Of a stretch of DNA of 64,000 nt, positions 4,509 through 56,956 are shown in pieces; within the stretch, counting starts at the first letter, position 1, and every line of letters starts with the position of its first letter. This DNA comes from Albugo candida (Eukaryota), in assembly GCA_040437565.1 (NCBI GenBank), contig JBDOQK010000021.1, positions 248,001 to 312,000 of the forward strand, written 5' to 3'. The position numbers and the translations under genes are program-made. The notes beneath the pieces are model-generated. The model was not told the DNA's origin and did no database searches. It saw only the letters and a program-made list of their open reading frames with translations.

Positions 4509-4699
4509 NNNNNNNNNNNNNNNNNNNNNNNNNNNNNNNNNNNNNNNNNNNNNNNNNNNNNNNNNNNNNNNNNNNNNNNNNNNNNNNNNNNNNNNNNNNN
4601 NNNNNNNNACCCTATGAAACGGAAAATCACTGTGGCTGTTTATTTCATGCCGTAAGATAGCGAACAGAAGATTTGATTTTCCGACGAGCTTTGTATATT

Positions 4700-6800
4700 T
4701 GTGCGGAAAGATGACAGCCTTTGCATTCAATTTATTACAATCAAACTTCCAAGTAGACTCGGATATCCTTTTGTTGTTAGACTTGGTTTTGACTGGTGAC
4801 AGAAGGATGGAAAAATAAATGAGCTAGAGCAATCTTGAATGTGACTCCAAGAGTCAAATCAACTACAACCGTCCAAACTGTAAACGTTGGATATATATAT
4901 TACTTCTATACTTGATACGTCTGTCGTTAGTACATCGTCTTGATCCTTGCGGCATTGACCAGCACTTGTGCCACGCAGGGAACAAGAGCTTTCTTCGAGT
5001 GGTGGGCATCAAACAATGCGTTGACAAAGGGATCAAACTTAGAAAGGTCCATCATGCTATGGTGATCTCGATGATAACTTTCGTTCTTTTTTTAGAAGAC
5101 AATCTGGCTACTCCAACAGCACAGGAAGCTTTGTAAATGTTTTCAAAAAGAAAAAGCAGAAGTTTCTAATTATGAGTGGATGACATGAACAAATTCCCAT
5201 GAAATTTCAGATTCTGACTCTCTTTAGGTATGTTATTGACACAAACTCGTGATCTCAACCCACGCTAAACCTCCACCGAATATAATAGATCTAGTATGAA
5301 TTATCAGTCATGCAGCATTCCACCAAATTCAGTGAAGATGTACATTCGAATCCAACGTCCTTATTGCCATCGATTTGTTCTAGTTCCCATATCGATCCGT
5401 TCGGCTCACGATTAGACGTTGAAGTTATGCACCCAACACGCTCTCAAATATCAGAGTTTTCCGTCGTATGAACAAAACTTTGGTCGATTTTTGTGGTACT
5501 TTGCTTTCTCCGGCCACTCTTGCACGTCCTTCGTCTACGACAATATCAAAAGCACGTATACCTTTAGGTACACCAAAAGGTCAGCAGAAAGTGAGTACTC
5601 TCACAAAAAGTCTAGCGTGAATCTTTGTGCTCCATTTTAATCCCGTCATCTTGTGATACAGGATCATACCAGTGTACAGTGCCTGACGTGATTTGATTCC
5701 GCACAATGTCAGAGAAATGGTCTGAATGGCCGATCAGGATTGCAAATCACTTCAAGCGCATTCTTTCAAGCATCGGGTTAGGCCTATGTCTGCGCTGTTT
5801 TAGTTGATAGTGAAGTCTTATCACCTTCCAAGTAGCGATGACAGATACATATGAGCGTCATCAAAACCTATCAACAGGTATCGATTCCCGATTATAATAT
5901 CAAGTAAAATGGTAGGAATAGCTGAACATTAAGAATTCCCTTTTGCTCTGCCAGGTGCACTCTCACATAGTCGCGCCTCCGGCCGCCGATTCGATTGTTT
6001 CCAGTCTTGAATAAAATAGATGGACAGTCGACAAATGAGTGCGATCTTCTTGGAGCTTGAACACTTCACAAAAAATTCTTTTATGCGTTGTTGGGACTTG
6101 GTAGACATAGTCTTTACTACCTTGTGCACCAGACGCTCAACAAAGTCACCACTCATCTCCACGCATAGACCCATATACTTGATTCCTGCGCCCACGCGAC
6201 TAAATCGATCAACTGACAAATGGATGTCCTCGATCGATATTTTCAAAAGTANNNNNNNNNNNNNNNNNNNNNNNNNNNNNNNNNNNNNNNNNNNNNNNNN
6301 NNNNNNNNNNNNNNNNNNNNNNNNNNNNNNNNNNNNNNNNNNNNNNNNNNNAGTCTTTACTACCTTGTGCACCAGACGCTCAACAAAGTCACCACTCATC
6401 TCCACGCATAGACCCATATACTTGATTCCTGCGCCCACGCGACTAAATCGATCAACTGACAAATGGATGTCCTCGATCGATATTTTCAAAAGTATTTGCA
6501 TTTAACTCGCATCAAATCTTTTCCACTTCGATGCGTCCGTTTCGATGATAACAAAAGAGCTCTGCAGTAAAACACTAAATCAAATGTATCTTCCATGCAC
6601 ACTTGTACTTGTACTTGTCCTGTCACCTAAAGCCAGTCGCCTGCACACCAGCTGGCCTCATAACATCGTGTTGAATTAAAAATAAATGCACCTAACGAGT
6701 TGACGAAACAAGTATTTTACTCGACGTAAACTGACTCTTGTTAGCTTACCAGTAAGGTGATGCATTATGGCGCACTATTTCATACCAGGAACCGTGACGT
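4700..6800 (-). pseudogene. Divergent partner gene relic, type 1 (paired with the 6995 pseudogene)
   Basis: ORF piece 5929-6501 (GDFVERLV...KIALICRL...GRAKGNS); DNA homologous to 35370-36970 and 58060-59900. Confidence 0.6.
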
Positions 6801-9779: not shown

Positions 9780-10850
9780 ACTTTGGATCCTTATGCACTA
9801 AACCAATACAGAGTCGTGTCCTACAGCCAATTGTCATTTCAATGTGTGAAATTTGAGGAAACATGACAAGAAGAGCAAAGTCTCATGAGTTTCAGAGTAT
9901 CCAAATGTAGCTGAACGTTCAGCGTTCGTTCTACTACCAGAACTGTAGTCTCGGATATCTGTACGTTGACTACCACTCCGAGTCTCCGAGTCTCCGAGTC
10001 TCCGAGTCTCCGAGTCTCNNNNNNNNNNNNNNNNNNNNNNNNNNNNNNNNNNNNNNNNNNNNNNNNNNNNNNNNNNNNNNNNNNNNNNNNNNNNNNNNNN
10101 NNNNNNNNNNNNNNNNNNCTCCGAGTCTCCGAGTCTCCGAGTCTCCGAGTCTCCGAGTCTCTGAGTCTTTGCGGTCAATGAAGTGTAATACAAGGAATGT
10201 CGGCGAATGTGGGTGTAGAAACAATGCTCACCTGTTGGTTCGCTTGGTAAAATGCAGTCTACGGAGTTGATCGCTGAGTGGTCGTTTTCATAAAGAATGC
10301 TTCAGCTTCAGTATCAAGTCATTTGAGGGATCCTTGACCTCATACAACGTCAATCAGAGACACTTTAGCTAGTCGATAAATCTGAAAGGGACGTTTACGC
10401 AAAACGTCATCGACATGGAATCCCGAGATCTTGCTGTAAGCATTGTAAGTCTCGTGCAAAGCCTTCTGACGCGTTTGCTTACATTGGTATCCACACTACC
10501 CAGTTCCTTGCGCACTAAACGCTTTACAGAGTCCCCCCTTTCACGCATAGGCCCGTAGATAAAGGACTTGATTCCTGCGCCCAGTTGCAGCTCTACCGAT
10601 ATGATGAGAAATGGTCGTCCCCGATCGGTATATTCTTCATGTGTTTGCATTCTACGCCCATCTGATCGTTACCACTTTCGGCTGAACTCTGCCGTAATAA
10701 ACTTGATTTTATGTTCTCACGATTGTAATCTAGTCAACGGCATACCCTTCTGTAGAAACGAAAGCAAACCGCACCATAAGGCGTTTGACACAAGAAAGTA
10801 ATACCTAACGAATGGATGAAGCAAGCATTTTCCTCGGCGATTAGCTGAGG
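9780..10850 (-). pseudogene. Divergent partner gene relic, type 2 (paired with the 11121 gene)
   Basis: LGAGIKSFIYGPMRERGDSVKRLV and SRTNAERSATFGYSETHETLLFLS; homologous to 63110-64000. Confidence 0.55.
9976..10168. repeat. (CTCCGAGT)n 8-bp tandem repeat spanning a gap
   Basis: Perfect octamer units on both sides of the 100-N gap. Confidence 0.95.
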
Positions 10851-11120: not shown

Positions 11121-11612
11121 ATGGTCTCTCGAGCTTTCACAGTTCTCGTTTTCGGTCTGATCGCTGTTGCCATTTTAAGTCGAGCAGACTTTCATCGGAG
11201 TGATACAAAATGCCATTTATCAGCGTCTGCTAATCTTTATTATTATACGACATTTTGCATCAATGTTGACTCTGATGAGTGCAAGAAGACACGCAAGTTT
11301 GCCCTTCGGGATATAGTCGTGGAATATTTCACCGGCGTCCTAAACGGTAAAATGTACACGATGCACATGCTCGAACGTGCGTCGATTGATCTTATCGCCA
11401 AAGCATTACATGGAATGTTCGATACTGACGGCACGAATGATGTTGCCTTTGTTCAAGATTGTATGCGTTATATCAGAAAGAGAATATCCAAAAAAACTGA
11501 TTATGAAAGTATAATCTTCGACGAGGACTTGGTTGATTATCCTGTTCATCCCCAGGAGATCTACGACATTGCTCGTTTCATCTATTATGGTTGTCCAACG
11601 GTTCCTCTTTAA
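11121..11612 (+). CDS. Small secreted Cys-patterned protein, candidate effector (163 aa)
   Basis: ATG at 11121; signal peptide MVSRAFTVLVFGLIAVAILS; C-x14-C-x7-C; C-terminal IARFIYYGC; intact single exon; family 3' motif AAGCTTTGCATCAATACA downstream. Confidence 0.85.
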   Translation: MVSRAFTVLVFGLIAVAILSRADFHRSDTKCHLSASANLYYYTTFCINVDSDECKKTRKFALRDIVVEYFTGVLNGKMYTMHMLERASIDLIAKALHGMFDTDGTNDVAFVQDCMRYIRKRISKKTDYESIIFDEDLVDYPVHPQEIYDIARFIYYGCPTVPL

Positions 11613-11954
11613 AGGGTTTATAACAAACAAATGGTTTTTAGAGAAGCTTTGCATCAATACACTTACACTTTTCTCACAACGAGTGTGTCATTTCTTTTGA
11701 GCCGAGTTTTATTGGAAAAGTGTGTTCTACTAACTTAGATCTTCAGTTTGCCTAATCGGTTTTTGACAATATNNNNNNNNNNNNNNNNNNNNNNNNNNNN
11801 NNNNNNNNNNNNNNNNNNNNNNNNNNNNNNNNNNNNNNNNNNNNNNNNNNNNNNNNNNNNNNNNNNNNNNNNCCTAAAGTCACATGATCATCGCCAACAA
11901 TTTCTACTTCGTAGTAATAACCAATTTTTATTCAGACTTTTTATCCGACATATA

Positions 11955-14474: not shown

Positions 14475-16038
14475 TACTGTATCTAAACATACTTGGCTTC
14501 TCGAGTATCTTCGCAAACTGCGCACTTAATATGATCGCAAAGACTATTTCCTGATTGCGGTAGCCGCGCGCATCTCACTTAAAAATTGTGCAAATGAACA
14601 TGTACTCAGCTTCAACATCAAATGCATTCACTGTTTTGTCACATTGTTGTCGCCTTTTTCTTCATGGTGGGCTTTCACTTTCTAATTTCGGTCTTCTAAC
14701 CGACATATAGTTGACATCAGCAAGGCTCCAGAATGATGTACCCTTGTGATTGCACGTCTAAATGTGATATTATGCAGAGATAAGAGCATTATGTCTGCAA
14801 TCAGACTTGTACCAGTTCTTGCAAGAACAGCCTAGATGGCACACAACGGCAAGATATGATACCGTATACCTCAATTTCCTGTTGGTCTTCGAGTGCAATA
14901 TCGCGATCCTGGTTCAAACAAAAGAGTACCTGAAAAGTAGTGGAAGAAGCTGCTATACCTTGTATAAATCGAATACATAAGCTCGTAATGGTGAATGTAT
15001 ATTAAAGTCTGACAGCGCCTCAAATCATCCAACTGTTTTGATCGATTTGCAAATCGATGTTAATGTCGCGTGCTACTTTCATCAATCGTGCCAACAATGA
15101 TAGGTTGAGAGGTCGAGCCCCGCACGTGGCGACATTCATGCTAGGGTTTTAGGACGACTTCAATACTGAGGGATGGGTTTGGTACCGGTTACGTATCTTG
15201 TTAGAAACGAGTCACGTCTCTAACGTATCAGGACAGTATTTTGAGCCGATGTTTCGAGATATCGGATCAACGTCTTTTTTCTAGATATTCGGAGTGGGAA
15301 GTTATTGATAAGATAATGTACGTACCTTTTATCAAGAAAACAAAGTCAACCAAGCCATCGACGAAGTTGTCGTCTGGATTGCTTGACGGAGGATTTGTGC
15401 GAGACAAATCACGATGAAGAAACAACAAAATTAATTTTAGCCAAGTAATAGTCCTTGGCAAGGTCTGGCGAAGAAGGACACTCAAGAGTTGAAGACATGA
15501 GTGCCAGCCAGGAGATGTATGAGAAGTTGGAGAGAATAGCGTCTGACTCTGAGGGCCCAAGAAATCCGAGCGTTCCGGCGATTAGATCCAGTGGGACCAT
15601 TTAATGGGGTACTCACGGATGAGATATTGCGGAGGATGACAGAGAATTACGAGATGACGGACGTCTTGGAGATACTAGGGTATCGAATGCACCCCAGCTT
15701 CCAAAGCACCCTATATGTAGAGGAGAGACAGCAAAGGACAAAAGCGATTTCGTGAAGCGATATCAAGATTACTGCAACACGCTGCTGACGTTCGAAACAT
15801 GTGTGAACNNNNNNNNNNNNNNNNNNNNNNNNNNNNNNNNNNNNNNNNNNNNNNNNNNNNNNNNNNNNNNNNNNNNNNNNNNNNNNNNNNNNNNNNNNNN
15901 NNNNNNNNATCGATTTGCAAATCGATGTTAATGTCGCGTGCTACTTTCATCAATCGTGCCAACAATGATAGGTTGAGAGGTCGAGCCCCGCACGTGGCGA
16001 CATTCATGCTAGGGTTTTAGGACGACTTCAATACTGAG

Positions 16039-16295: not shown

Positions 16296-19200
16296 AAATT
16301 AATTTTAGCCAAGTAATAGTCCTTGGCAAGGTCTGGCGAAGAAGGACACTCAAGAGTTGAAGACATGAGTGCCAGCCAGGAGATGTATGAGAAGTTGGAG
16401 AGAATAGCGTCTGACTCTGAGGGCCCAAGAAATCCGAGCGTTCCGGCGATTAGATCCAGTGGGACCATTTAATGGGGTACTCACGGATGAGATATTGCGG
16501 AGGATGACAGAGAATTACGAGATGACGGACGTCTTGGAGATACTAGGGTATCGAATGCACCCCAGCTTCCAAAGCACCCTATATGTAGAGGAGAGACAGC
16601 AAAGGACAAAAGCGATTTCGTGAAGCGATATCAAGATTACTGCAACACGCTGCTGACGTTCGAAACATGTGTGAACAAGCCGTTCGTGATGCCAGTATCA
16701 GCTTGCGTGGATGTATGGATGAGAGAGAAAATGTTGAAGTTTAGAATGGAAAAAGAACCGACGGAGGTTACCGAACAAGAGTAGATAAACTATTTTCGGG
16801 AAGCGGGAGAGCCGAATAAACGGGATTTGTCAAAGAGCGATAAAGAAATGCGTAAAGTAAGGATGCATACCACTCTAAAGGATGCAGGATCAAGAATATC
16901 GCGGTTGAGAAACCAAATCTACAGAATCTTGGATCAACACGGATTGCAAGAATACGTGGAACATGTGGATCCAATACGCATTGCCAGCGTATTGTCGATG
17001 CTTTAGAGCCTCAAACATTCAGAAGAAAATTGTGGAAAAACTCGAAATGAACATCCACAAACAAAGAAGAATAACGTTGTGATCTACTGGAAGTGGTGTC
17101 AGGAGCTTTTGAAAAGTTTCATGGAGTGGGAGCCAGATTTAATGAAGGATAACACGCTACGAAGATGCGAATATAAGGACACGAAGTCAAATAAGGGAGA
17201 AAGACGCAAGAACTTCCGCGAAAGAATGCTGGATAATGATTCGGGCAGTTGTCGACAGATACGAGCTGAAATAGCTACAGATACTAGCTCAAGCGTATGA
17301 TCACGTTTCAGATGTTTGAAGTGTGAAAGTGCGGATCATTCCTTGAGGAGTTGTCCTAAGTGTGATTTTGAAGAAGTGGAAAGACTACTGAAACAAAGCA
17401 AAACCCAGAACGAGAAAAGGATAGATGTCGTTACAAAAGTACGAAAATCAGTTAGAGACTACAGCGGAGAGGTACAGACCACAGTGGATGGTATTGATAA
17501 CGTAAACACGTTATTGGATTCTGGATCGAATTGTCGCATGGCATCAGTGGGTCTTGTAAAAGCGCTTTCCAGAGAAAAATTCTAGCGACAAAGTAAATGA
17601 AAAACCGATCGAAGATCGAAACTGTGGTGAAGACACCGGTGTGGTTAAAACGGAGATTTTTACTCCAGGGTGTGGAATTTAGCACAAGTGGAGGACGCTG
17701 TTGTGGAGAAACCTGGAAATGCTCGTAAAGGAGGAATACGAGTCGATTTCACTTATAATGGATAGACATTTAATGGAGAAGATGGGCATTCAGTTATGGC
17801 GATTCTGGAAAGAGCCAGAAAAAAAAGAGCAGATGGGATGTGATGAACAAAGAAAGTCCAAATACTCCTGGGTGCAATTCGCTTCAAGTATGTGAAGATA
17901 TACTCTTCGACGATGAAGTGGACTTCAGCGATGACAAGGAAGAATATGTACTTACACCAGAAGTGAGGCCAATGGATACACAGAAGGATCGTATTCGCAG
18001 CATTTTGGAGAAGAAAATAGAAAAAGCGAAGATCGCAGGTGCCAAAACTGAATCGGTAGATCGTTTGAGGGGCTTATTGTTCAAGTATGATGATGTGTTT
18101 CGTGTGGAGTTTGCCGCGGATCCTCCGGTCAAGGTTGAACCTCTCAAGGTCAGATTAAAGGATGGTTCAAGCCCTATTATGGTAAAATCCTGGCGGTATC
18201 CACCTCTCCATAGGGAATATATGGATACACATTTATCGGAATTAATGGAACACGATCTGATGTATCCTAACCCATATGCGCAATGGAGGTGTGCTCCTTG
18301 TATTGTGGGGCAGAAACAAGTCGGAGAATATCGAGGAACCATGGATTTTGAGTGCAATCAATGCAATAACAGTGCCAATGACGTGGCCAATGCCACATCT
18401 TGAGGTTGTCATGGCAAATTTGGAGGGATCAGCTTTTCATTTCTCGCTGGATTGTTTCCGTTTTTTTTGGCAGTTACTCTTGATGAAGGCAGCAGAGAGT
18501 ATCTTAGTGTGGTTACACCAAGTGGATTTTTACGGTGAAGCGGATCATAATGGGATCGACGGATGCATTTCCTTATGCGCGACAGGTGGCTGGAGAAGTT
18601 ATGAAGCCAGTGCTCGGGAAAAGGGTACATGTATGGCTGGATGATGTTCTCGGATATGCAAGTTCAGATGCACAAGTGCTGGATATATTCGACGTGGTTT
18701 TACAGAGATGCACTACATATGGGGTGAAACTAAGCCCGGAAAAGTGTACATTCATCGCATATTCCACAATATGGTGTGGGAAGAAATTCTAAGTAAAGGG
18801 ATTAGTCACTTTGAAAGTCGCGTAAAAGTTCTTTGTGAGATGGAAACTCCGAAGACGCCGGCGGAGCTGCAGCAATTTTTGTGCCCAGTAAGTTGGATGC
18901 GGAACACTATTCCGAATTATACAACATTGCTGAATGATCTCCATGAAGTTCCTCAAGAGCCGCGAAGGCGGCAGGCGGTCGTAAGAAGCGGAATCTGATT
19001 CATGTATTTTTGAAAGACCATGGATAGACATCTAAGAAGGATGAATGTCTCAAAAATGTGAAGAACGCATGTACGCAATTCTACCTATGGCACATCCTAA
19101 AGAAATTTGGGATGTATGTGCCTGTACGGATGCATAAAAAAATCACTGGGGAGCGATAATTACGCAGTTAGCTCCAGAAGAGCTATCCAAGCCAAGAGAT

Positions 19201-20295
19201 GAGTAGAACCATTTCCCTTTGGCGTGCATTAGTGAATCATTTCGAGGATCGATACTGAGGTGGGCAATTATTGAGAAAGAAGCCTATGCAATAGTGGAAA
19301 CGTGTAAAAGATTGGAATATCTATTGCTGAGAGCAAAAACGTTTTTACATCTTCACGGACCACAGAAACTTACAGTTCGTCTTCTACCCAGGGAGTATTG
19401 ACAATACTATCGCTCGACATAGAGCTGACAAGCTACGGTGTTGGGCCATGGCGCTACAGATGTTTAGATACATCGTTGAGCGTGTGGCCGGTACAGAGAA
19501 CGTCTGGGGTGACCTGCTTTCAAGACGGGGATGCGGAGATAATGAAGGTTTGAAAAAGGAGAAAACGAAATGTTATGCGGTTGCAGTGGCAGTGGTCGAA
19601 AACCGTTTCACCGCTACAATGTAATGAGTTCAAGTGGCCAGCACTGGATGAGACCAGCAAGGGGTAGCCGCGTATACAGAACATGAAATTAGGAAAATGC
19701 AGCGCCAGAACATGTAGGAATTGCAGTGTACACTGGATGGCATGCACAAAAAAAGTCCGAAGCTTCCAGCAAAAAGAATGAAGCTGCCCGGCACCGACAA
19801 GCAACAGAAACATGCCGTCTCTCTCGTGAACTTCGAAATTGGCGATTTCGTGCTGCAGGAGGTGTTACAAGGCGTACTAACAAATTGATGCTTCAGTGGA
19901 AAGGTCCTTGCAGAGGGGTGGCGATGTTGAACGGCTCGAATTACGACGTCCAGGAATTGGTGGCACCATTCAGTATCATCACAAGGCATGTCAGCAGGTT
20001 GAGGTTTTTTCGAGAAAATGATTTGGGCGTCTCACAAGATTTAACGGACTACGTCGCGTACGCAAACGGAGGACATTTAGTGAGCCGTTTCTTGGACTGC
20101 CGTATCAATCCTGACAATCACCAGTTGGAGGTACTCGTGCAATGGATTGGATTGGACGACACGGAGAATAGCTGGGAGCCAGCCAGTGTCCTGATGGAAG
20201 ATTTACCTACCTTATTGAGGAAGTAGGTAACAGTCGAACCCAAAGCGACCGAAAGCCGAAGTTTTATCGGCATTGAAACTTCAAGGAGAGGGAAA

Positions 20296-20549: not shown

Positions 20550-23169
20550 CTGAGTGAGGTTCGCATATTACGCAAACCAGCTTCACTTTGGCTGGATACA
20601 GGTCAAATCTGCCAATGATAATGGATGAATATCTCCATTCGAATAAATTCACGTAAACGTCGTAGTTATCACCGGGATAGGGATCCAGATTGCTCATTGC
20701 AGAGCACAGAATGCGTCACACCTCTATGGCTAGCGTTCCGAAAAGGCAATCCATCGGAATGCCTGTATTTGCGTGGGTGGAGTGTATGCTTGATTTCCAA
20801 CTATTCACTTCACATCTATCGATGCAAATGGAATGAGACCTCCGGCAAAACTCTCTTTCAGACAACTTCGGGTCTTGTTATTGAATGGACTAAAGCTCTT
20901 GTACGTGTTTCACGACCATAATTGCACAATCAAACGTTCCTTTTCTACAATCAAAGCGTTTTACTTCGGTGCTTTGTTGGAATGCATCAACTGATGACTG
21001 AGTCTGATGTAAGGGTATAAACACCAGAATAGGTCACACTTGGTTACATTAGGCTGGAAATAGGCGGCTGATGCGTTAGGTTCTTATGTACGTAACCTTG
21101 CTCCACCCCTGTATTACTTCTCACCGTGCAGTAATAATAGAGCAAGGACCATGCTCGAAGTACGGTGAGCTATATTCGACCTGTATTTGTTCCCATGTTT
21201 TTACACTGCTACATATCAGCCAGGTTGGTAGGAAGAGTATTCTTTCAAGTCGGTATATGATTCAAATATTGCTGCGAAAGAGAATAACATATGCATCGCA
21301 TTGCACGCGATAGTAGGAAGCATTCATACAAAAGAGATTGAATACTGCGCAGCGCTATACAGACGAAATAGGAAAGTAATGGCTGTCTTTAGATAAGGGA
21401 AAAGTAGCTGGGGTAGTATAGGCTGTGCAGCTCTACCTAGTTTGATCCACAGCTCAATTTCCCCCAGTTGCCAACAACCTGACCCATGGTCTCTCTTGAT
21501 TTTGTAGATGCCGTGCTCAGTCTTCTCACTATTTTATATGCAGACCTTTCAGCAGGATACCACCACGTTCAGAACACTCTTAACAAAGTCAGCCGTCCAG
21601 CTAGATGGTCGGCTACTTTTAGAGAATATAAGTAGCCACTAATTGTGTTGACGTCATGAGCATTGCTAATGGCACTTCGGGAGGCGCAACACTCTATAAA
21701 AATCCATACATTGTGTGTACCCCGGAATAATGGCTGCCATTGAACCAGTGAAGCCACTTGATGGTGGGATGACCATGTGATTATGTATCTACTGGGATGT
21801 GCATATTGCGCAAAGATGAGATACAAAGTGTCGTATGAAAAGTCTACATAAGACTACTGTTCTTGACTCGATGTATATGATATGTTCCTAAGTGACTTGT
21901 GACACGAAGGTACGAATCACAAGATCAAAATTCCGGATCTGATCCTCCCAAAAATCATCTTTTGGCTGTTTAGGAAGCTCCATATCAACCGACCCGATGT
22001 ACTGTCGATGAAGTATCAACTACTTGCATTGTCACTGAGAAATTGCAATGTTCCAAGGATATCACCTGAAAAGACAGCGGGAAGACCAAGTCGGTTCCGA
22101 TGAATATGAAAATAGTAAGTGGAGGAAAATTACACCACGATCGCTCTTTCATTGCACAACACAGCTCATTGATGAGATCAACGAAGGTGATAAGTTCCAC
22201 ACGAACGAGTACTCTCATCTTATCATAAGGTAAGCTATATATTTGGGGATTTTAGATACTCTCAACAAGGTATGGGAAGCTCTGCCCACATGGAATCAAG
22301 ACTGTCTTCGTCATGCTTGCTTTCCCACATTCTACCCGACAGCAGCCTGATGTGTTACGCCAACATTACATATTCTCGCCTTAAGACATGATAGCAACGC
22401 GTGCTTGTATTCCCAAGATATGAAATAGCTTTCCCGTTTGAATCAAAAAGCAAGGTTTGTGTCATTCCATGCTGCATGATCGTGAACGGGAAAATTCTAT
22501 CAGTCAGTGAGCATTGTATGTTTTCTGGAAAGATAGCTGGATGTACTATCGATTTGTATAAATCAACATTCTACTTAGGATCGGTATTTCTAGTGTTGTT
22601 AGACTTGCATTGATTGCTGATAGAAGTATGCAGAGTTAACGAGAGATCCAACAATCTTTAGAGTACCTCCAATCATCTCCAAATGTCTGAATTCTTTTGC
22701 TTCCCTCAAACTCAAGACACAGAATACATCTGGAAACGCCTACCTTCTAGCACACTCTGGAGCGTTTCCCCTCTTTATATTTCCGACATTGATCAGCATG
22801 CTGTAGCCACGGCAGCTCTTTCGTAATGGTATGCTCTCCACAAGGCGTCACTAAAAGCTGGCAGACGGACTTACATTATGAAGTACTTGTATTTGGACTA
22901 AGGAGAAGAATGAGACTACCCCAAAAAGGTCCACCAAACGATCCAAAAGGCCTAAAGCTTTGGGTAGTTTTGATCGCGAAGACAGCAGATGGATGTGAGT
23001 ACGAGTAGGATGATATGAATTACATCACACGGAACATTAAGCTCTAAAACTCATTCGGTATACTGCTGCTCCAACCCCTGTGATCTGCAGCTACATTAAA
23101 CCTTGTATCACATATAATATATCTAGCATGGGGTCTAAGTCGTCCAGCATTTCAACAAATTCTGCAAAG

Positions 23170-23560
23170 TTATCATTTGGCAATAGAAGTGGAGAAGGTA
23201 CAGCTCGCAGATGCTGTTGCAAGCATGTTTTACGGCTATCCCATAGATGTCAAAAAGAACGAGAAAGAAGCGTATTTTGATCCAGTGCAAGTGCACACAC
23301 ATACCTCGACAATTTTGTCACTCTAGCCAAGTACGATTGCGTAATCCCAATTTCCCAAATCAGAGGCTCTGTTTGTAAATTTGAAGAAGTTCTCTGACAG
23401 TGACAATCTCTGCTCGTTAGGATTTCTGCATCAACAGATTTCATTACTCTCAATAGAATTGTCGTCAACTTACATGACCAAGCTACCTCGCCAGTCCTAT
23501 TGAAAGAACTCCCACAAAGTGCAGCAGACCATTGTAGGAGTTCGGTGCTTTATTGACTCG
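23170..23560 (+). pseudogene. Fragment of the secreted-protein family (long variant)
   Basis: AIEVEKVQLADAVASMFYGYP...YLDNFVTL matches the 3870 and 6995 copies; flank 23600-23920 resembles 7880-8080. Confidence 0.55.
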
Positions 23561-24157
23561 AGTCTTGAGCGATTGAGTATTAACAATAAACGAACTTGTA
23601 ACAGTCTGTCAGGCCATACTTATAATACCATTCCGGATTCATAAACCGCGACATCAAATGCTATCATACAGTAATGTGTACCAACGAAACTCATAAAGTG
23701 CCGTCATTAGCTCACATTTTTTGCTAAAAGACGAGACCGTGTCGCATGTAAAGTGCAGCGCGTTGTGACTTGAGCAATGAATGCCCAGTACACATACATC
23801 AACAAAGACACTGTCACAGGCATAGTACCGTACCCCGCGAAAGATGGAGGAATACAATTCAAAGACACTTGCTGTGGCTCCAGCGGTAAGTAACTTTGCG
23901 ATACATCATGTGGTAGAGGGGTTCACTGAGGTCAGGGAGTATCTTAGGGTAAGCACTCTTTCGATCACCTTCAGACTACTACTTACCCCTAAACAAGCGT
24001 AATCAGAGTAAAATCCTTGCCAACATGTAGTAATAACCATGACACGTGGATCAAAAGGATGTGTACGTCTACACCCTACATCAAAGTAATTTGGCTGCAT
24101 CACTTTGATTCACAACTCGACTTGCCTTCGACTTCCCAGCAGCCAACAACTTTACAT

Positions 24158-24688
24158 ATAGTCTCATTTTCCCACTTTATCCAACACACATTTTGTCATT
24201 TCTTTTGCAGCAAAGCGAATGAAGTCTCTCTTAATGCCAAAATTAACAAATGCCCCCTTGGTCTAGCACCCTATTTCTTTGACAAGGGATGTGATTCCAG
24301 CAAAGCTCTCACTACTCAATGTGAATCTGATTTCAAAGCGACCAATAAGGACTTTATTTCGATGTTATTCAGCGTCAGCACTGACTCCCCGATTGACCCC
24401 TTGCTGCCAGAGATGCAACCAAGAGCGATAGCTGACGAAGTCGGAGCATTTTTCAATGGGGACCACTATCAGAGCTCTGACAAAGACATGAAAACGTTTC
24501 TCCAAAACGCGCACAAGGCGATAATTAATGATTTGAAAACGAATCAGCCGCTGTGGGTAGATTATAAGGTTCTCTCCGACCCAAGTTTCCAAGCCGAATT
24601 TATCACTCGATTTGTACTGGCAGGGTTTTCACATTGCGACGCAGAGTGGAAAAAGGAGTCAAAGAAGAAGTTGCGATTTCTTATGTGA
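24158..24688 (+). pseudogene. Secreted-protein family member, open frame but ATA at the expected start codon
   Basis: Family 5' UTR (GATTCACAACTCGACTTGCCTTCGACTTCCCAGCAGCCAAC) followed by CAT-ATA-GTC-TCA where paralogs have ATG-GTC-TCT. C-x12-C-x9-C, AIADEVGAFF, ITRFVLAGFSHC. Confidence 0.7.
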
Positions 24689-25011
24689 TGGGGTGTGATA
24701 TAAATACATTTCATTTCTGTGCGCAAATGTGGTATCTGCCATTGTTCTGACTGGCCAACTTTTTCGTCATGCCTTACGTTCTCAGCAAGATTTGCGTAAT
24801 GATGTACGTCTATCAGCGCGCGATAAGCTTCGAGGTTACTTCGGCGAGTTGTTGTGCAATGATGGGATTACTCTCAAATGAGTGGGGGTTGCTGCCATTG
24901 CTGAAGGACTAGTATTGGGTGTAGAGTACATCATGTACTGGTCGGAGATGTCTGTCTTCGTTAGCCTTCGTGGTGGGACCAAGTGAAATGATCGCCTTTG
25001 ACAGATTCCTT

Positions 25012-26618
25012 CCCAATCACATTCCTTGCTCAGGTGTGACTGAGATTTCTTTGTGTCTCTACACGAGCCCTTGTTCGACTTGGTACTTGATTGTGTAGAT
25101 GGTGGCCATCCTCACTTTTGCGATACAGAGTGCTTGGTAGAATCGATCCACCTTCGAATTGACCTCCAGCTTGGCCTTGATGAACGCGTTCAATTCTGGT
25201 TCTATTGCCAGTGTTATGACCACACAAGTACAGATCGATCTCTCGCTCTGTTGCACTCCTCCATCAGCTACAGTATGGGGCTACTTTTTTTGCTTGATTC
25301 TCTTGCAATCTCTGCTGCAAGTTTGTGCACTACTTTGCGGCACCCTCACTGATACAGAACAAAAATCAGACATGTTGGGGGCGATATCTGCCACTGCTTC
25401 GCTTTCAGAGTCTCTACTTCCTCGTTACTCGTATCGACAATATACGACTTTGTGGCGACGTTCTGCTTCTTCTTGCCGGTAAGATCTCATCTCCACAGCA
25501 GGTGTATATTATTGTACTTGTAGTCCCTGGCGTCGAAGACTTTCATGTTGGTTCAGAAGAAGGTCGCTCAGATATTATCTTTGTTGCAAGTCAACTCGCC
25601 TTTTGTTAGTGTATTGAGTATGCGACCATTCTCCTGTGAGTGACAAATGAACGAGAGTGGCTATGTTCAGAATGATGTGTCTGAGAATCACTGAAGTCTT
25701 CATACAAAAGTCCAAAGCTTCTTGCCAGCCGCATCCATCGTCTCTGTCATTTTCAACCTTCCACGCCAATAGTTTGAGGCTTGCATTGGATGCCGTGAAA
25801 TACAAGATTCTGCTTGGTGGCACCACTTGTCGTGTATTTTTTATCCAGATGTGTTTGACCCCGATATCGCATCCTTGTTTGATTGTCTTGCTTTTTCTTA
25901 CCCGGTCAATTAGGAAAGTCTTTTTTTTGCCAAGCACAGTTTGCGTAGGCTATCATCTTCGATAAAATGTTGATATTGGTCTCAAATACAGTCGTCACGT
26001 GCACTGAACAATATTCCAACACAGTATTCAGGTACGTATATGAGAGAGAGGCGTCTCCTGAAGGCAGTAAGGGTTCATAATGCTTCTTGTACAACATGAT
26101 GAGTTTGTCTATAAAAGAGTGGTCGGTATATACTTTTCTGCTGACATACCGCCGTTGATACTGTATAAATTCGATACCGACCAGGGGCGATGAATTTTTT
26201 TGACGAATGAAGTACAGCCTCGGAAACNNNNNNNNNNNNNNNNNNNNNNNNNNNNNNNNNNNNNNNNNNNNNNNNNNNNNNNNNNNNNNNNNNNNNNNNN
26301 NNNNNNNNNNNNNNNNNNNNNNNNNNNGACGAATGAAGTACAGCCTCGGAAACAGCACACAGGATAGAATGGTCTTGGTTGTTTCGTAAGAGGGTACGTC
26401 AGGCTCTGGAGGCCTGTCGCCGAGTTCCAAGCGCACCTAAGTTTAGCGTCAAACGATGTTTCGATAGATATTTCTTGTTTTTCCGTAGCATAATGTTCTT
26501 TTAGTTGTAGAGAAGACTTGGTGAGTCCGAGTAATTGAACACCAATATCTTTTTGTCTCGTTCGTTTTGTCGGCCCCAACGTCTGATTTGTGTTGAGAAC
26601 CCTTTTTACAGGCGGCAT
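25012..26618 (-). pseudogene. Fanzor1 (eukaryotic TnpB-like RNA-guided endonuclease) relic, frameshifted and 3'-truncated
   Basis: Ordered Fanzor1-like blocks: RPPEPD..TTKTILSCVL; IDKLIMLYKKHYEPLL..LSYTYLNTVLEY..TVFETNI; AWQKK/TFLIDRVRK; TSVILRHIILNIATLVHL; RuvC-I relic ADIAPNMSD; FIKAKLEVNSKVDRFYQ/LYRK; TPEQ..VIG, after which similarity is lost. Confidence 0.75.
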
Positions 26619-26653
26619 CAGTTCCACCACTCTTAAACAGCTTTCGGCATCAG

Positions 26654-26992
26654 TCATCGTCGAGTGCCATTCACTCTATAACCTCTTGACAAGAAGTACA
26701 AAATTCCGAGATATGAGCCGATCGGGACACTTCTGTCGTCTAAATACATACCCAGAATAAATTCTGAAACGTCGTGCATGGATTTTGCTTCAAGGAGCTT
26801 CGATGTCATTTTAATTCTAGCCACAGTCCCTACTTTCGTATGGCCATGTAGTGTTGGCCTGAGCATTGTAAAACAGAGTAAACTGTATGCTGTTTCCAAC
26901 ACTATGATGAGACGACGTATGATCTCGTCTTCGTGTGCACCAGTATTGTCCCTGAGACACAAGTAGCCCCTCATATTAAATATTAATGCCAT
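26654..26992 (-). other. Unassigned ORF directly upstream of the Fanzor relic
   Basis: 112-aa ATG ORF on the same strand, overlapping the start of the next ORF; no recognised motif. Confidence 0.2.
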
Positions 26993-27490
26993 CCATCATG
27001 AAGCCTCCATTATTATGCAACTACTCATGATCGCTGCTATAAGTACTTGATGCAAACCGCATCATTCAAAGAAGACACAAGCACTCAAACGCAGGGTGTG
27101 ATGAGTATATCGTCCATCGATCATATTTTGTTATTTTTAAGCATCTTTGACAGCATAGAACGTCTTCAATTCATCTCTCTTAGGCATAATCTTCTTTTCT
27201 CTAAGCAAAGCGACTGCAAGAATCGGGAACGCTACCTACCATGACGGCGCCCAGCTCTGGTCTATGAGAGTAGGCTGTGCTGCGGTCATCTTGTTAGCCA
27301 CAGGGGCTATTACGTCCCTGATACAGTAAGTAATGTCTCCACCTGTTCACTCACCGGTTCAACGGCACTGGAGCGCGCGCCAGTTGCTCTTAGAGGCTTT
27401 ATTACTAGCTTGCGCGTTCATTCGGTTCTGTAGAGGCAATTTGGATCTCAACGACGTGCATTTTGACCAATATTTGAGTTATGTATGTAT

Positions 27491-28130
27491 ATGTCGATCG
27501 TTGAGGTTAAAGTGAAATTGGGGAGTCACCAAAAGGAGACGCTTCTTGTTCGTTGTTTACCAGTAGAGGAAATAGAACTGAGAATTGATTTGATCGATGG
27601 AACGCATGTTTGGTGTAGCTCAGTTGATGAGAGACATACACCGCCAGCTTTGGACATGGCTGGGACGCATTATCAATAGATTCTCGAATCGATATTTTCC
27701 GTGCCTTCTCCGATCAGTAGCCCTCAAGATGAAATGAAAAGGGAGATGCTTCGGGTTACTTATTATATTGGGATCCTACAAATGGCGTGCTTTCATTATC
27801 CCAGGAACTTGAGTTTCATGCCCAGAAGAGAATTACGGCAAACTTAACAGCGTTGCAGTTCACTCCAGTACCAGCAAAGGAGCTGGATCTCTATGGAATA
27901 TGTTTATGAAGGAGATAGTGTCATATAAGCTGGGTTTATACGGGAAGAGAGAAATGGGAACACGTTGCTGAAGAACGAAAACGTCTCATCTTGTCCAGAA
28001 ATGTGACAGTAAAGAAAGCCGCAATTGCAACAAAAGCGAAAATTAGAAAATTACGCTTTCTCTTCATTCATCGATCTCTTGAACGCCAAAATAGAAAGAA
28101 TTGAATAATTAGACTGCGAGTTACACACAT
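27491..28130 (+). pseudogene. XRCC4: XRCC4-like NHEJ factor pseudogene
   Basis: Head-domain-like LRIDLIDGTHVWCSSV and coiled-coil QKRKLENYAFSSFIDLLNAKIERIE resemble XRCC4 (xTLTDGxxxW and FxxxLNxKKxKI). In-frame stops (27677, about 28106) and frameshifts. Confidence 0.6.
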
Positions 28131-28339
28131 TAAGCTCGAGAAAAAGTAATTCGTTTACCAAACAGCCGTTATGCAATAAATACTACGGTCGGTTGAATAA
28201 TTGTATTCTCTGACACAATCACACACATGACGTAGCACAGTCAACGCACAGTCATCATCTGTGAGCATAACACCAACCCGCACCTCCATTCTAACGCATG
28301 ACGCATCAACTTAGACATATGACCCGTCCAAAAATCTTT

Positions 28340-31300
28340 CAAGAAGCGCCGACGTGGCAGATGTGGTTTTAGGATACAAATGCCAATCATAAGGTAGCAT
28401 CAAAGAGTATGTCATCTCAGTTGAAGGTGTCTATAATATCAGAATTAGACCAACTGACTTCTCTAGTTGCCTAGGCTATCTTAAATAACTAATATACATA
28501 AAAAACGTTTCGTAAAATACCTGTGAGAGATGATAATATGTCTTCTCGTTGATAATCCCGTATTGCAGTAGCCTCAGTCACCTTAATACGAGATTGTGTC
28601 CAGCTTGTAAATGCTGTAAAGTTGTAAAAATCGTCCAAAAGTACCGTGTTTGCAAAATGGTGTGCGTCACAGTAGCCTGAACAATGCCGTCCAACTAGGA
28701 CTAGCATCTGAGTTGCACTTGCATTTCCACTTGCCTGTGTCGTACCCGCAGCAATGATCTTCGACTTCTGAAAAATTCACCGAATGATCCTTGTGTTGCG
28801 AGTTGATCCAAAACCTTTGCAAGCCGAATGCGTTCGTTTTGGTCGTAACACTGTCTTCGATAGTACCGAACATGCGCACTAAACGTGGTGTAGATCACCG
28901 AAAGTGCTGGAACTGTCGGAGTTGCTGATCGCTGATCGAACAAAAGACGATTCCGATGGGTCCAGACGAAGTGTAATGTCACCGCTTGCAATGCAAGCCA
29001 TAAATCCGATATAATTTGTTGATAATCTTTCCAAACCGACCGTAGTGTTGGCACGATTGCACATGCGATATGCGATATGCGTCCAACGGGGTCGAGATTA
29101 GAAGAACTGATCCCAACTAAGGAGTAACTCCCTCTACATTTGTGCCGTGTGCTCGCATTTTAAAAAGAGACGTTGATCGGATTCCACTGCGCCACACGAA
29201 GGCTGCGTGCACAATATAATGTCGTGCTGAAGATGTTTTAGAACCCATAAACGAGATCGAACTGGCAACATTCGAAATGCCAGACGAAACTTTAAATCTC
29301 TAAAAAGGGGTAATGCACGTTTTCGAAGATGCCGGGATGTGGCCATAAATGTTCTAACCGTTCGGAATCCAGCGCATCCGATCTCTCCCGTGATGACCAA
29401 TGCGTTGACATCGGATGACTCTTGGTTGGTTCGGGAGGTTTCCAGATGATTTGTGAGCTGAGAGCGTGGAATTGATGGGAAATAATGCTTCCTTTCCTTG
29501 CTTTGTACTCCCACATAAAATGACCCGCCACTTGTGTTTAGTTGGATCCAAGTGATGAGACCAAATGTCGAGTGGATACGCTGTAAGATCTGAGTGACTT
29601 CATTGCAGAGTCGACTCAATAACTTTTCTTCAGCCATATCCGATGTATTCAGCTCTTCGTCGTTGTAATAAATGTCAACAAAATTTCTCTTCGTTGACTA
29701 TTTGACGCTTTATAGAAAAGAGTCTTGGAGACTTCGGATCTCGAAAAGCGTAGCGAACGATTTTAGAAATGTGCGATGTGGTTCACCCACCATGCCAAGA
29801 TTGCACCAAACGTTTTGCGTACTCGGATTACGAGTAGCAGCTTCGTAATGTAATTCTTGGTCGCAGTAAAACCACATCGGTTGTTCCATGTAGTACATGT
29901 AGTACTGACGGCGTTGTAAAACATTCAAATCGGAAATGAAAATGCTCCATCTGAAATCACATTTCAAATGCGTGTTTCCACCATGAAGATGTGCTCTCCC
30001 ATTGAACATTTTGCCCACATCGGTGTGGTGCGATAGTGAATATATCCATCGGCTTGTGTGGTCCAAAGGAAGGTTGGATAAGTTGTAATACTTCCGTCGA
30101 AGCAGTTGTCCAATTCGCAGGAATAACTGCCGACGAATGGGATGCGAACTGCTGAAGTGATTGAATACGTTGTAGCTTCAGTTGTTCACATTAAAATGGA
30201 CTGTTGTCCACCATATTGTCGGCGAAGATGTAAAAACTCTTTGCTGAGTAGGTGAACGTGTGTCGAATCTTTTTTGTGTTGACCAAGCACAAATCGATTA
30301 AACATCGATTGCTACTGTCGAATAGTCTCTGCTGGTATGTCTACGTGCATCGTGTAATGCCGCAGACGTGATAAAATCATCGTTTGCGCAACCAACCATA
30401 CACCAAACCCATCATAAAAACGCATGTCGAGAGTTGAAATAACCATCGGATGAGTCGGTTTCTGGCCGAACCGAATACCCAAATACTTGACCGAATCCTT
30501 CGGACCCAGTATGGTCAAATTGGGAATACGTGGGACNNNNNNNNNNNNNNNNNNNNNNNNNNNNNNNNNNNNNNNNNNNNNNNNNNNNNNNNNNNNNNNN
30601 NNNNNNNNNNNNNNNNNNNNNNNNNNNNNNNNNNNNCCAACTTTCCCACATTTTTCCGGGATTCGAAGTTTTCCGCAGCTGTTCGAGCACCAAATTCACT
30701 TCCAATTTGATTGCTTCGACAACTTTAGGATATTCAAATAGTCGTAATGAACATTTCCAATATCCTCGACCTGGAGATTGGGCTGGATTTGCAAAAGTTA
30801 CTTGTTGTGCCAGAAGATTTATCGCATGTCGTGGACGAAAATATTCTGAGGTTTTGTATACCATATTGAATAGCTCTTCCGACATGCAAATATAATCGAG
30901 TCGATTCTTGCTCGGTAATGGTGCTTTAATACGTTTTAGTGGTATGTTGGATTCGCCAAGCGTCTACCACACCCAACTGGGAAAGCCATTCCAAACACGC
31001 TAGTCGACTTGGTTCGTGTCGAATTGTTCCTCTCGAAGCATCGACAGCTGGATCGAGTGGTGTGTTAATATCACCAAATACGAGATGTGTTGCGGTCGAT
31101 TCTTAAGTGTTGGGGAGCAACAACTCAAAGAAAACCACTTTTTCGTCGTCCTTGACCGATGCATATACATTGTGAATATACACCGATGCATCGTGAATGA
31201 GAAGACGCAACACCAAATAGCGATTTCGAATACTCCGTTCGGTGAGTTCTTCAGCTGTTGTATAACCAGGAAAGTTCCAACAAAGGATTGTCATGACGCC

Positions 31301-34692: not shown

Positions 34693-35148
34693 CTATTGGC
34701 GGTCCGGTTCAAAGCAAATTGTAGCAAGCCTGATCATAAAGTTTTTAGCTCTCTGACAGGCTTCGATTTGCTCACGAGTCTTGCACACGTTATCTATATT
34801 TATTATATTTTTGTACACAGGGACATTCGCGTATACTGTTTCCATGAAACGTACAAGATCCTCGCCATTCAATTTGGAATCAGGATAAACTTTCTTCGCT
34901 CCAGCACCGAGTGCGGAAAGATCGAGCTTGGTTATATCAAGAGTCCCATGTGGTGAGAAAATCTGTTTAAATAGCGTGTTATAAGCTACCTGCCGCCACT
35001 TCCAACAAATCGTGCCTTTTTTAAACCATGGTAGGCTACCATCCCGATAAGGAGGAATATTGTCGATTTTAGGACAATTGACTTTAGACTCCACAGTTTT
35101 AAGACCGAAAAGACCAAATAAAAAGACCAAGCTTCCAGGAGACACCAT
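34693..35148 (-). CDS. Small secreted Cys-patterned protein, candidate effector (151 aa)
   Basis: ATG at 35148; signal-like MVSPGSLVFLFGLFGLKTVES; five Cys; family 5' UTR and 3' motif AAGCTTTTGCATCAATACATT; intact. Confidence 0.8.
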   Translation of the reverse strand: MVSPGSLVFLFGLFGLKTVESKVNCPKIDNIPPYRDGSLPWFKKGTICWKWRQVAYNTLFKQIFSPHGTLDITKLDLSALGAGAKKVYPDSKLNGEDLVRFMETVYANVPVYKNIINIDNVCKTREQIEACQRAKNFMIRLATICFEPDRQ

Positions 35149-35280
35149 GTGTAAGCTTCTTGTTGGCTGTTGGGGATTCGAAAGCAAAGTGAAGTTTTAA
35201 TCAAACTGATGCGTTCAAATCCCTCACCAAAGTGTGGACCATTACATCCAGCTGATATTACGTCATTGAAAAGACGGTTC
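35149..35280 (-). promoter_or_regulatory. Conserved family promoter and 5' UTR
   Basis: CATCCAGCTGATATTACGTCATT on the + strand; ATTTGAACGCATCAGTTTGAT...CACTTTGCTTTCG (INR/FPR-like) on the - strand. Confidence 0.6.
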
Positions 35281-37059: not shown

Positions 37060-40000
37060 ATCTATGGGCCTATGCATGAATTTGCGTGGAGAATTTCTGG
37101 CGCTTAAAGCAGTATATACCATGTTCATCAAGTGCCGTGAGGTAATCCTGCGTGACGCATTTCTAGTTTTAGCAACATCGAAATCTCCATGTCAACAACG
37201 TTTCGAATTGATCCTTCGTTTCAAAGTTAATGCTTGTCTACATTGTTTTGAGAAGATGGTGCATTGAGTCAATGATCCTTAAAAATGCGTGTGAGAGTGC
37301 GCCTTGGCCTGCTTCAGTAGCTTTTGTTCGACCATATTTGGAAAGTGGACGGTGTCGTCACCTGATGACGACACCGTCAGAACTTTACAATACAATGGAA
37401 TGTGATGAAGAGTTTCTGCTTCCAAATGGAGAGAGTCTAAAAATATAGCTCAAGGGAAACGCCGATTTTGTAGTACGCGTCGATGGTGAGATTTTCGTCG
37501 CATCAAGCTAACAGACGTCTACTACTCGGCAGATCTTCCGTGGAATATAATTCGTATGGAAGAATTAAAGAAAAAGACTGTGACCTACGTTATGATGGAC
37601 GCACGTGCTCGATGGTCCGACGCAGCGACGGTTTCAAGATCTTATTTTGACAAGGACAAAAATAATGTATTGGTGTTACGTGCTGTGATCGAGGATGTAG
37701 TTGGACTTGGTGCCAGGAAAGATGAAAACTGCGTATTTGCAGCTCTCGCTCAAGCTATCAATTCAACAATTCCGATACACAAGCGGGAATTCTACTGGAT
37801 TTTCACTTGCTCTTTGCACATCTAGCTTATGACACCATCGAGAAGATGGCAAACGACCCAGAGAGCGTCATATTTCTTACGAATAAGGAAAGGCCACGTA
37901 CATAACATGCTCACAGGGCAAACAGACACGCAATAATCAGTCGACCAAAGACACTGGAATAAATGCTCCTATGGACCGAGTAGGTGGCGTTATCTTTAGC
38001 GATATCAAGGGTTCAATCACTCCAATCAACAGGTGTGGAAATAGGTGCCTTATAATTTCGTGGATCACAAAAGCAACTACTGCCGTGTGTTTCTGGCAAA
38101 AACGAAGGACAAGACGACCAAGTCATTTGAGAACTTTCTCGTATACTTTGAGAAGCGCTTCAACTGTAGGATTCACTGCCTATGCACCGATGGTGGAGGC
38201 GAGTACAGGGTCGTCGACCCGTTTTGTGAAAATCCGGAGTGCGACGTGAGGTATCGGAAGCGGGAAATCAAGCGTCGAATGGGAAGCCGGAGCGTCTGGA
38301 TCAAACAGTGATGAACATGGTGCGATCCAAGATTTTTGGATCAGGGTTGCCATTGAGTTTTTGGAGTGACGCTGCAGATATGCGTCTTACATTCTCAGCC
38401 GCAGAACAACGCGAGGAAATGAGATTTGCGCTTCGCCGATTGAAGTTTTGACGGGTTCCAGCCCAAAGCTGACGGATATTGTTATTTTTGGCTCCCCGTG
38501 CACCGCAATCCGGACCCCGAAGCATAAGACTCTCGATCTGCGTGGAGTAAAAGGCCCTATTATTGGCAAGAGCGACAAAGCGTACAAGGTTCTTTTCACC
38601 AAGGATCGTGTGGTACGAACAACGCAACATGTCAGAAATATTAAGACCGTCAGCGAGGATGCAAACGCGCAACTTGTTCTTCAAATAAATGCAAACAACG
38701 CGGAAGACGCTAACAGAAAGAAGACCGCTGATCCCATATACATTACCGTCGAGGCAACAGCTGAAACGTGTACGTCTAGTGACACACTACCAGACTCAAG
38801 TAGAGATGTTGGACATCGGGAGGAGCCACGAGTGGGATCAGGGAAGGTCAAGAAGCGCGGCAAGCGTGGCGGAAGAAGAAGTAATCTGAACAAATCGTCA
38901 GTCAATCAGCCATCATTGACCATGAGGACGAGAAATAATGGGACAAAGATCCCGCCACGCGAGATTATTCGTGCTGTTTATCGTGTGGATTTGAAGAATT
39001 GGGGAGAAGCCATGAATAGTGACAATATTGTGGAGTGGGAGCGCGCTGCTGAGTCGTAGATAGATTCACTACAGGCCAATGACACGTGAGAGATGGTATT
39101 TCGCATGGATGAAATATGCCCTCTTCACACAAAGTGGGTGTTCAAGAGAAATAGAGATGCTGACGGAACGTCGAGCGCTACAAGCACGGATGGTGGCATA
39201 TGGGAATGGGAATTCGTGTGGTAAAAATCATAAACTAACATTAGCTGCCGTTGTAGACATGACTACTGGGAAGGTTATCCTTGCATTATCCGAGATATGG
39301 GGTGTACCCGCACGCCATGGGGACGTGCCTAATGCATATGTCAAGCTCTCCACTGAACCGGACCTGGAAATTTACCTATAAGATCCACAAGGTATGAAAG
39401 AGAGTGAGATGGAGCTACAGCGATGTGATGCTCAGCCCACAAAATAAGTGGTGCTTCGACTTCAGTGCAGCCTTTATGGATTAAAACAAGCTGAATGACA
39501 CTGGGTGCAGCCTCTACATTCAGAACTACTTCGTGTCGGATTCGTACTTTGTGTCACAGACTCATGTCTCTACTACAAAGGTGATCACGATGGAAAGACT
39601 GTCGTAGGAGTAAATGTTGACGATTTGCTGGTGACCAGGACATCGAAGATTCGAGTTAATGATGTATTCAAACATTTAACAACGCTCCATATCAAGGACC
39701 TGGGCGTCGTTAGCAACTTTCTAGTGATGCGACTTACTCATTATCCGGAGTTTGTTTAAAGATTGGCCAAGAACCGATTATCGAGCTATTATTAAAGTTC
39801 GGTCTGCAAGATGCGCACTACGTGACGACACCAATCCGGCTCGCTCATGATACTAAAACGCGGAAAGCTGACCCGATTCTACCTGGGATGGGCCAGTCGG
39901 ATCAACATCGCTTAAACAGGATCAGTTGATCATGGGATCGCTGTTATGGTTCGCTCGATGCACACGAGCGAACATTGTTAATGCTGTGCACCGAGCTACG

Positions 40001-56700: not shown

Positions 56701-56956
56701 AAAAATCTTCTTCTCGTCAATCGATTAATGGCTGTGCACAATATCAGGTAATATTATTTTTTTACGAGATAAAGTCAACATGATGGTGGGAAGTCCCTTC
56801 GAAGCGTGGTAGAATTCTCCAGAAATGAGTGTCGGGGTGAAGATCAGTGCCAGAGANNNNNNNNNNNNNNNNNNNNNNNNNNNNNNNNNNNNNNNNNNNN
56901 NNNNNNNNNNNNNNNNNNNNNNNNNNNNNNNNNNNNNNNNNNNNNNNNNNNNNNNN

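Follow-up and report, generated by a model that had tools for sequence, protein, structure and literature searches.

A probable Fanzor1 pseudogene on the minus strand of an Albugo candida contig

The locus and the question

The minus strand between about 25000 and 26700 of the window, by which the whole 64,000-nucleotide stretch of Albugo candida DNA analysed here is meant, is broken up, in each of its three phases, into frames that measure 47-134 codons from stop to stop. The question raised by this locus is whether these pieces are the remains of a single gene and, if so, of which kind. Fanzor1 proteins are RNA-guided RuvC endonucleases of the TnpB type, forming the branch found in eukaryotes and giant viruses, and are carried by DNA transposons, and a sequence-only reading of the window had proposed that the frames join into one decayed Fanzor1 gene. 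Taken singly, the pieces say little. At the base composition of the window, chance alone gives ORFs nearly this long, and none of the 11 raw frame pieces had a credible family in a Pfam scan (best E 0.058). A word-index protein search with a 124-aa piece returned P0001 alone, a mechanical ORF of a near-identical copy that runs across other frames. In this work, the minus strand of 24985-26430, read from 26430 down to 24985, is interpreted with high confidence (a probability of roughly 0.93) as a pseudogene descended from a Fanzor1 gene.

Fanzor1 homology across the broken frames

A 106-aa piece, 25906-26226 (-), was searched by full HMMER (phmmer) against 1.84 billion representative proteins and gave 14 matches at E <= 1e-3. 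Two of them (P0002 and P0003) were near-identical mechanical ORFs of other assemblies, the P0005 cluster (E 7.5e-15) was a more diverged, decayed paralog, and P0006-P0008 and P0011-P0015 were short N-terminal ORFs of metagenomic origin (P0006, E 7.5e-12; P0007, E 7.1e-10). P0010 was an AT-rich 477-aa protein with no nuclease domain match. P0004 was rejected as a relative, as it is a tandem-repeat ORF without relation to Fanzor, and its match (E 2e-18, added up from 11 stretches) looks spurious. None of the clusters of the six matches that were looked up carried a name. P0009, the nearest relative of full length, is a protein of 647 aa (E 8.9e-7), and it alone of the 14 had a TnpB-type Pfam domain above cut-off (PF07282, Cas12f1-like_TNB, 34.5 vs 26.3 bits). 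By comparing P0009 with all PDB sequences, the Fanzor1 of Spizellomyces punctatus was recovered at E 1.1e-45 over residues 22-646 (8GKH), together with PmFz1 of Parasitella parasitica (9CF0, E 8.7e-34) and GtFz1 of Guillardia theta (9CER, E 1.1e-17); the sole further match was a ribosomal protein at E 0.33. At least 621 relatives of P0009 at E <= 1e-5 were found among the 8000 candidates scored. They were mostly unnamed, some were called 'transposase', and two came from Coccomyxa elongata. Furthermore, 471 of 505 pattern matches in IMG/VR encode P0009 relatives, many of them on contigs named GVMAG.

The identity does not depend on P0009. Profile A2, made of the window piece and nine N-terminal-only relatives with P0009 excluded, matched GtFz1, PmFz1 and SpuFz1 in the PDB at E 4.8e-8 to 8.3e-7, the next match being at E 0.62, so that Fanzor1 chains made up 3/3 of the matches below E 0.1. 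The best-preserved block of the window is thus a Fanzor1-type N-terminal region rather than a RuvC motif of general kind. Among the PDB matches of P0009 and of A2 at E <= 1 there was neither a Fanzor2 nor a TnpB chain, and P0009 matched no nuclease other than the three Fanzor1 proteins. The Fanzor1 assignment of the sequence-only reading is borne out by both routes.

An HMM of the Fanzor1 family was built from 37 P0009 relatives and run against 3899 six-frame fragments of the window. It was significant only at this locus, where 26226-25918 matched profile positions 52-164 (E 4.8e-14), 25214-25071 positions 457-502 (E 3.3e-4) and 25709-25611 positions 267-299 (E 0.02). At lax thresholds more weak pieces appeared, strictly collinear, several of them singly insignificant (E 1.7-500). 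A frameshift-aware profile alignment, for which the N-gap inside the locus was collapsed beforehand, placed P0009 residues 45-544 on window positions 26382-24985 with a score of 317.5. The 415 aligned codons were 34.5% identical to P0009, and about 500 of about 650 ancestral codons are still alignable. In comparison, scores were 27.4-35.8 for six shuffles, 26.8-36.5 for 12 segments or strands taken elsewhere in the window and 28.3 for the plus strand at the locus itself; the maximum of all 19 controls was therefore 36.5. The features of the locus are as follows.

24985..26430, minus: probable Fanzor1 relic, whole detectable extent (frameshift-aware alignment; collinear HMM matches)
26428..26430, minus: TTG at the start-ATG position of P0005 and P0007 (tblastn, P0007 residues 1-163 to 26430-25918)
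26353..26421, minus: N-terminal block (PPEPDVPSYETTKT...), tblastn to P0009 6-29 with 50% identity, E 0.026; weak HMM match to profile positions 4-26, E 80
26228..26353, no strand: spurious assembly gap, made of 100 N and a second copy (26 nt) of 26202-26227 (exact repeat; contig joins)
25918..26226, minus: best-preserved block, N-terminal REC-type region, profile 52-164 (hmmsearch; phmmer; A2)
25571..25917, minus: middle region, profile about 165-313, with a 27-aa deletion and five frameshifts; HMM matches at 25709-25611 (E 0.02) and 25786-25712 (E 2.7)
25356..25403, minus: RuvC-I block, IAPNMSD, catalytic Asp replaced by Ala; alone a weak HMM match, E 45
25071..25214, minus: FIKAKLEVN...FYQ block, profile 457-502 (hmmsearch)
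24985..25044, minus: last aligned block, TPEQ / NVIG / KESVKG, with a 12-aa deletion of the GDWEQ segment
24659..24984, minus: tail in which no Fanzor homology was detected (C-terminal profile scores at background level)

The alignment upholds the earlier proposal that the minus-strand frames form one collinear series, and the motifs quoted for it (YTYLNTVLEY...FETNI, WQKK/FLIDRVRK, TSVILRHIILNIATLVHL, IAPNMSD, FIKAKLEVN...FYQ and TPEQ..VIG) fall on their Fanzor1 counterparts; 'LYRK' is the exception, as the alignment favours another frame there. The extent first given, 25012-26618, is moved at both ends. Detectable homology starts at 26430, where a TTG aligns with Met1 of P0005 and P0007, and ends at 24985; no homology to the Fanzor1 profile was found in 26431-26618 by HMM search of window fragments even at lax thresholds. 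An in-frame TAG stands at 26439-26437, upstream of the TTG at 26430-26428. The PPEPDVPSY block (26421-26353) resembles the N-terminus of the relatives and is followed by a deletion of about 25 aa with respect to P0009, which in alignment A2 is common to the paralog P0005. Judged by its sequence, the locus is Fanzor1 by descent, with significant collinear homology that includes a Fanzor1-type N-terminal region.

Lesions, catalytic residues and copies of the locus

The relic carries 11 frameshifts and six in-frame stops (25570, 25555, 25489, 25332, 25266 and 25061). A further 85 residues are unmatched, including gaps of 27 aa (P0009 189-215) and 12 aa (524-535), and the codon aligned with Met1 of the relatives is TTG. 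One frameshift lies in an A8 run at 25920, where the copy P0001 reads through, and some of the frameshifts could be assembly errors. A functional Fanzor1 has an uninterrupted ORF, or spliced exons, of about 600-700 codons, and the relic has neither.

In SpuFz1 the Mg ions are bound through E541, D383, N385 and D606, as described by Saito et al. (2023; PMC10432273). These residues correspond to E560, D394, N396 and D616 of P0009, as counted on the printed alignment, where a fusion offset of 394 fits all four; D394, E560 and D616 are invariant in the 37-sequence alignment. The Asp of RuvC-I (P0009 D394, SpuFz1 D383), present in 37/37 relatives, is replaced by Ala in the relic, encoded by GCC at 25382-25380, which agrees with the earlier observation that the IDP of RuvC-I had become IAP. 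The IAPNMSD motif is otherwise kept (395 P, 399 D), and the Asn two residues on (SpuFz1 N385) is retained. The tail at 24659-24984 is where one would expect the zinc finger together with the Glu of RuvC-II and the Asp of RuvC-III. The Fanzor motif given by Bao and Jurka (2013, PMC3627910) has the form D-X(125,275)-[TS][TS]-X-X-C4-X(5,50)-RD, its first D being the RuvC-I Asp. The profile of residues 545-647 scored 23.7 against 25000-24300, while shuffles scored 22.9 +/- 2.9 and 29 control segments 24.4 +/- 2.4. Neither the RuvC-II Glu in its DEFRTS motif (SpuFz1 E541) nor the [TS][TS]-X-X and C4 finger were detected in 25000-24300, the Asp of the RuvC-III 'RD' (WNRD; SpuFz1 D606) was undetected by HMM and profile alignment, and PF07282 had no match in the raw pieces or flanking ORFs. 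The zinc finger and RuvC-III had been called lost in the sequence-only reading, and these scores concur. The sole collinear candidate just before RuvC-III was 24986-24921, matching profile 581-602 at E 53. Two C-terminal look-alikes, 24977-24924 to P0009 586-604 (BLAST E 3.4) and 24846-24787 to P0009 549-565, were discarded because they are insignificant and cannot both be collinear. The C-terminal third (RuvC-II Glu, C4 zinc finger, RuvC-III Asp) was probably deleted or replaced rather than merely worn down, because no other part of a family member is normally so well conserved, yet the rest of the relic is still about 35% identical.

As a nuclease, the relic falls short on every one of these catalytic counts. 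The copy is dead because of its frameshifts, stops, missing residues, TTG start, Asp-to-Ala replacement and undetectable C-terminus, and it presumably cannot encode a nuclease. The guide-RNA (omegaRNA) gene of a Fanzor normally overlaps the 3' end of the ORF, which is lost here, so this gene is most likely gone too. An nhmmer profile made from the 3' ends of 54 giant-virus relatives in IMG/VR had no match at the locus (best E 21 elsewhere); this is a weak test, since the 3' flanks of those relatives are poorly conserved in themselves.

The gap inside the relic is an assembly artefact. Positions 26202-26227 equal 26328-26353 in 26/26 bases, and in three of four public runs (X1, X2 and X16) a contig passes from 26201 straight to 26328 and so leaves out 126 bases, with X4 having no joining contig. 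P0001 reads straight across the gap position, and the collapse leaves the frame unchanged. The gap had been called spurious from the repeat already, and the contigs now bear this out. The window holds ten gaps of exactly 100 N in all (1686-1785, 4509-4608, 6252-6351, 10019-10118, 11773-11872, 15809-15908, 26228-26327, 30537-30636, 56857-56956 and 57473-57572). At several of them, e.g. 1686-1785, 6252-6351 and 10019-10118, identical residues recur before and after the gap in the ORF translations, and the other gaps may be unmerged overlaps like that at 26228-26327.

The runs listed with the window stretch number at least 20; they come from 11 studies and bear several coded organism labels, some of the runs being labelled 'plant metagenome'. 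The contigs of X1, X2 and X4 show no other letters over 24931-26201 or 25151-26201. Because they agree fully with the window in the coding part that they reach, errors of this one assembly do not account for the lesions. In the X16 copy, which has another organism label, the sole difference among the indels listed for 24659-25900 is a 3-nt deletion at 25829, and none of the base differences listed falls in any of the six stop codons. Among the differences listed X16 thus shares the lesions, which appear to be old, with decay preceding the split from the X16 copy. A paralog is present on a 1331-nt contig in X1 and X2 and on a 1480-nt contig in X4; these contigs match 25973-26082 (14 differences), 26714-26801 and 27097-27189, and the paralog shares about 0.9 kb upstream of the ORF.

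Two other readings of the frames themselves have to be weighed against a Fanzor1 pseudogene. The gene could be intact, its breaks being sequencing or assembly errors or unrecognised introns. The assembly is indeed imperfect, with its ten 100-N gaps, of which only that at this locus was checked and proved to have a duplicated end beside it; a homopolymer holds one of the frameshifts, and introns are described in Fanzor1 genes of some eukaryotes (CRe elements, PMC3627910). However, independent contigs agree on the coding part, the six stops and the Asp-to-Ala change are substitutions and not indel errors, no intron-sized insert occurs at the frameshifts, and the catalytic C-terminal third is absent, so the intact-gene reading is close to refuted. 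On the other hand, the likeness to Fanzor1 might be superficial and the relic might belong to another TnpB-type lineage (Fanzor2 or bacterial-type TnpB) or to an unrelated family, given that only the surroundings of RuvC-I are common to all TnpB-type proteins and that the raw pieces lack a Pfam match. This is highly improbable, because the best-kept N-terminal block matches only Fanzor1 chains in the PDB, and so does P0009, with no Fanzor2 or TnpB at E <= 1.

A third reading accepts the descent of the relic and disputes its neutrality. It supposes that the relic was co-opted as a non-coding polyadenylated transcript, or that its 5' part keeps a role at the RNA level. A 2738-nt contig of X16 spans 24659-27175 and begins with 17 T at 24659, at the far end of the tail region, as a minus-strand RNA with a poly(A)-like tail would; in X1 and X2 the DNA contigs continue past 24659. 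The relic locus may thus be transcribed. Moreover, the X16 copy diverges far less from the window in 24659-26201, with 10 letters changed in 1543 nt, than in 26328-27175, with 41 changed in 848 nt, and the stretch is present in runs of 11 studies with several organism labels. The change in divergence falls near a 15-nt indel at 26105-26112. Against this, the RNA label of X16 is a guess for one contig of one run (the kind of X4 was guessed as well), and no RNA run is listed among the runs with the window stretch. The uneven divergence is equally explained by a chimeric contig or by recombination with the paralog, transcribed dead transposon genes are common and are no proof of function, and no Rfam family matched; in 22000-28500 Rfam gave one sub-threshold match to Xist_exon1 (E 0.41), taken as chance. 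Minus-strand transcription of the dead gene, with polyadenylation near 24659 and a body (24659-26200) kept much more alike between related organisms than the adjacent upstream DNA, is very unlikely. If this were true, it would point to a nuclease relic reused as a non-coding RNA. The Fanzor1 pseudogene is best regarded as neutral debris in a transposon-rich region, a locus that probably does nothing as a protein gene.

Surroundings and relation to known Fanzor elements

The window is eukaryote-like and rich in transposon debris. Among its 14 larger ORFs, Pfam matches above cut-off were Chromo (19693-20226) and SH3_retrovirus (38370-39059), with rve (2019-2474) below. Remnants of LTR retrotransposons lie at 802-2474 (-), rve-like, at 17774-20226 (+), Chromo, and at 38370-39059 (+), retroviral SH3-like. 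No convincing terminal inverted or direct repeats were found in 22000-29000, where the best candidates were of 20-27 nt at 70-85%, estimated to be about chance. Neither target-site duplications nor a transposase were found around the locus, and 0/80 flanking ORFs had a Pfam match at E <= 0.001. Since no transposon ends, target-site duplications or transposase were found, the mobile-element context of the relic is one that we infer.

Several neighbouring ORFs were also observed. Just upstream of the relic, 26657-26995 (-), of 113 codons, has Ribosomal_L14 clusters as its nearest in the ESM Atlas (0.87, a lead only) and no Pfam L14 match at E <= 1; part of this region (26714-26801) is common to the paralog contig. 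Convergent with the relic, 23993-24688 (+), of 231 codons, reaches about 30 nt past the putative poly(A) site and had no Pfam match and no usable ESM Atlas match. Part of this ORF is repeated in the window, as 24039-24145 is 72% identical to 45287-45181 on the other strand. Farther away, the ORFs at 11121-11609 (+), 34693-35196 (-) and 62384-62986 (-), of 160-200 codons, have hydrophobic N-termini that look like signal peptides by eye and no Pfam match. The first of them has a single relative, 98% identical. These three ORFs may encode lineage-specific secreted proteins.

The order of blocks in the relic, from the REC-type region through RuvC-I, where the solved proteins have IDPN, is the same as in SpuFz1 (PDB 8GKH, 9CEU-9CEZ; Saito et al., 2023, PMC10432273), PmFz1 (9CF0) and GtFz1 (9CER). 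In contrast to SpuFz1, the relic has Ala in place of D383, no detectable E541, zinc finger or D606, and its frameshifts and stops; the 30-nt inverted repeats of Spu-1 elements have no counterpart found at the relic. The profile of the giant-virus and green-algal family around P0009 recognises the window, as given above, at E 4.8e-14. Unlike the relic, the members of the P0009 family have unbroken ORFs of about 650 aa in which every invariant catalytic position is present, and the window copy and its paralog P0005 lack the stretch of about 25 aa near the N-terminus that this family has. That Fanzor1 occurs in oomycetes and giant viruses, as the sequence-only reading stated, is documented in Table 1 of Bao and Jurka (2013, PMC3627910). 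Their paper describes it from large dsDNA viruses and from 26 eukaryotes, among them Pythium ultimum, three Phytophthora species and Albugo laibachii. According to the same paper, transposons of the Mariner, Helitron, IS4-like, Sola and MuDr kinds have often captured Fanzor1 genes, and part of the coding regions have degenerated. The oomycete elements (PUl-1 to 6 of Pythium ultimum and those of Phytophthora spp. and Albugo laibachii; PMC3627910) resemble the relic, by their description alone, in being eukaryotic, transposon-borne and in some cases degenerated. They differ in that no Mariner transposase, terminal inverted repeats or TA duplications were found at the relic.

The locus is thus an ordinary dead relic, of a family known together with decayed copies from eukaryotes and giant viruses since 2013. 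For the annotation of the contig it means that a set of broken ORFs is corrected to one pseudogene, and that the N-gap inside it is an artefact. Combining a family profile with frameshift-aware alignment recovers relics that plain Pfam scans of the pieces miss. The genome once hosted Fanzor1 elements and may still host them, and the closest intact relatives of this subfamily are found on giant-virus-like metagenome contigs.
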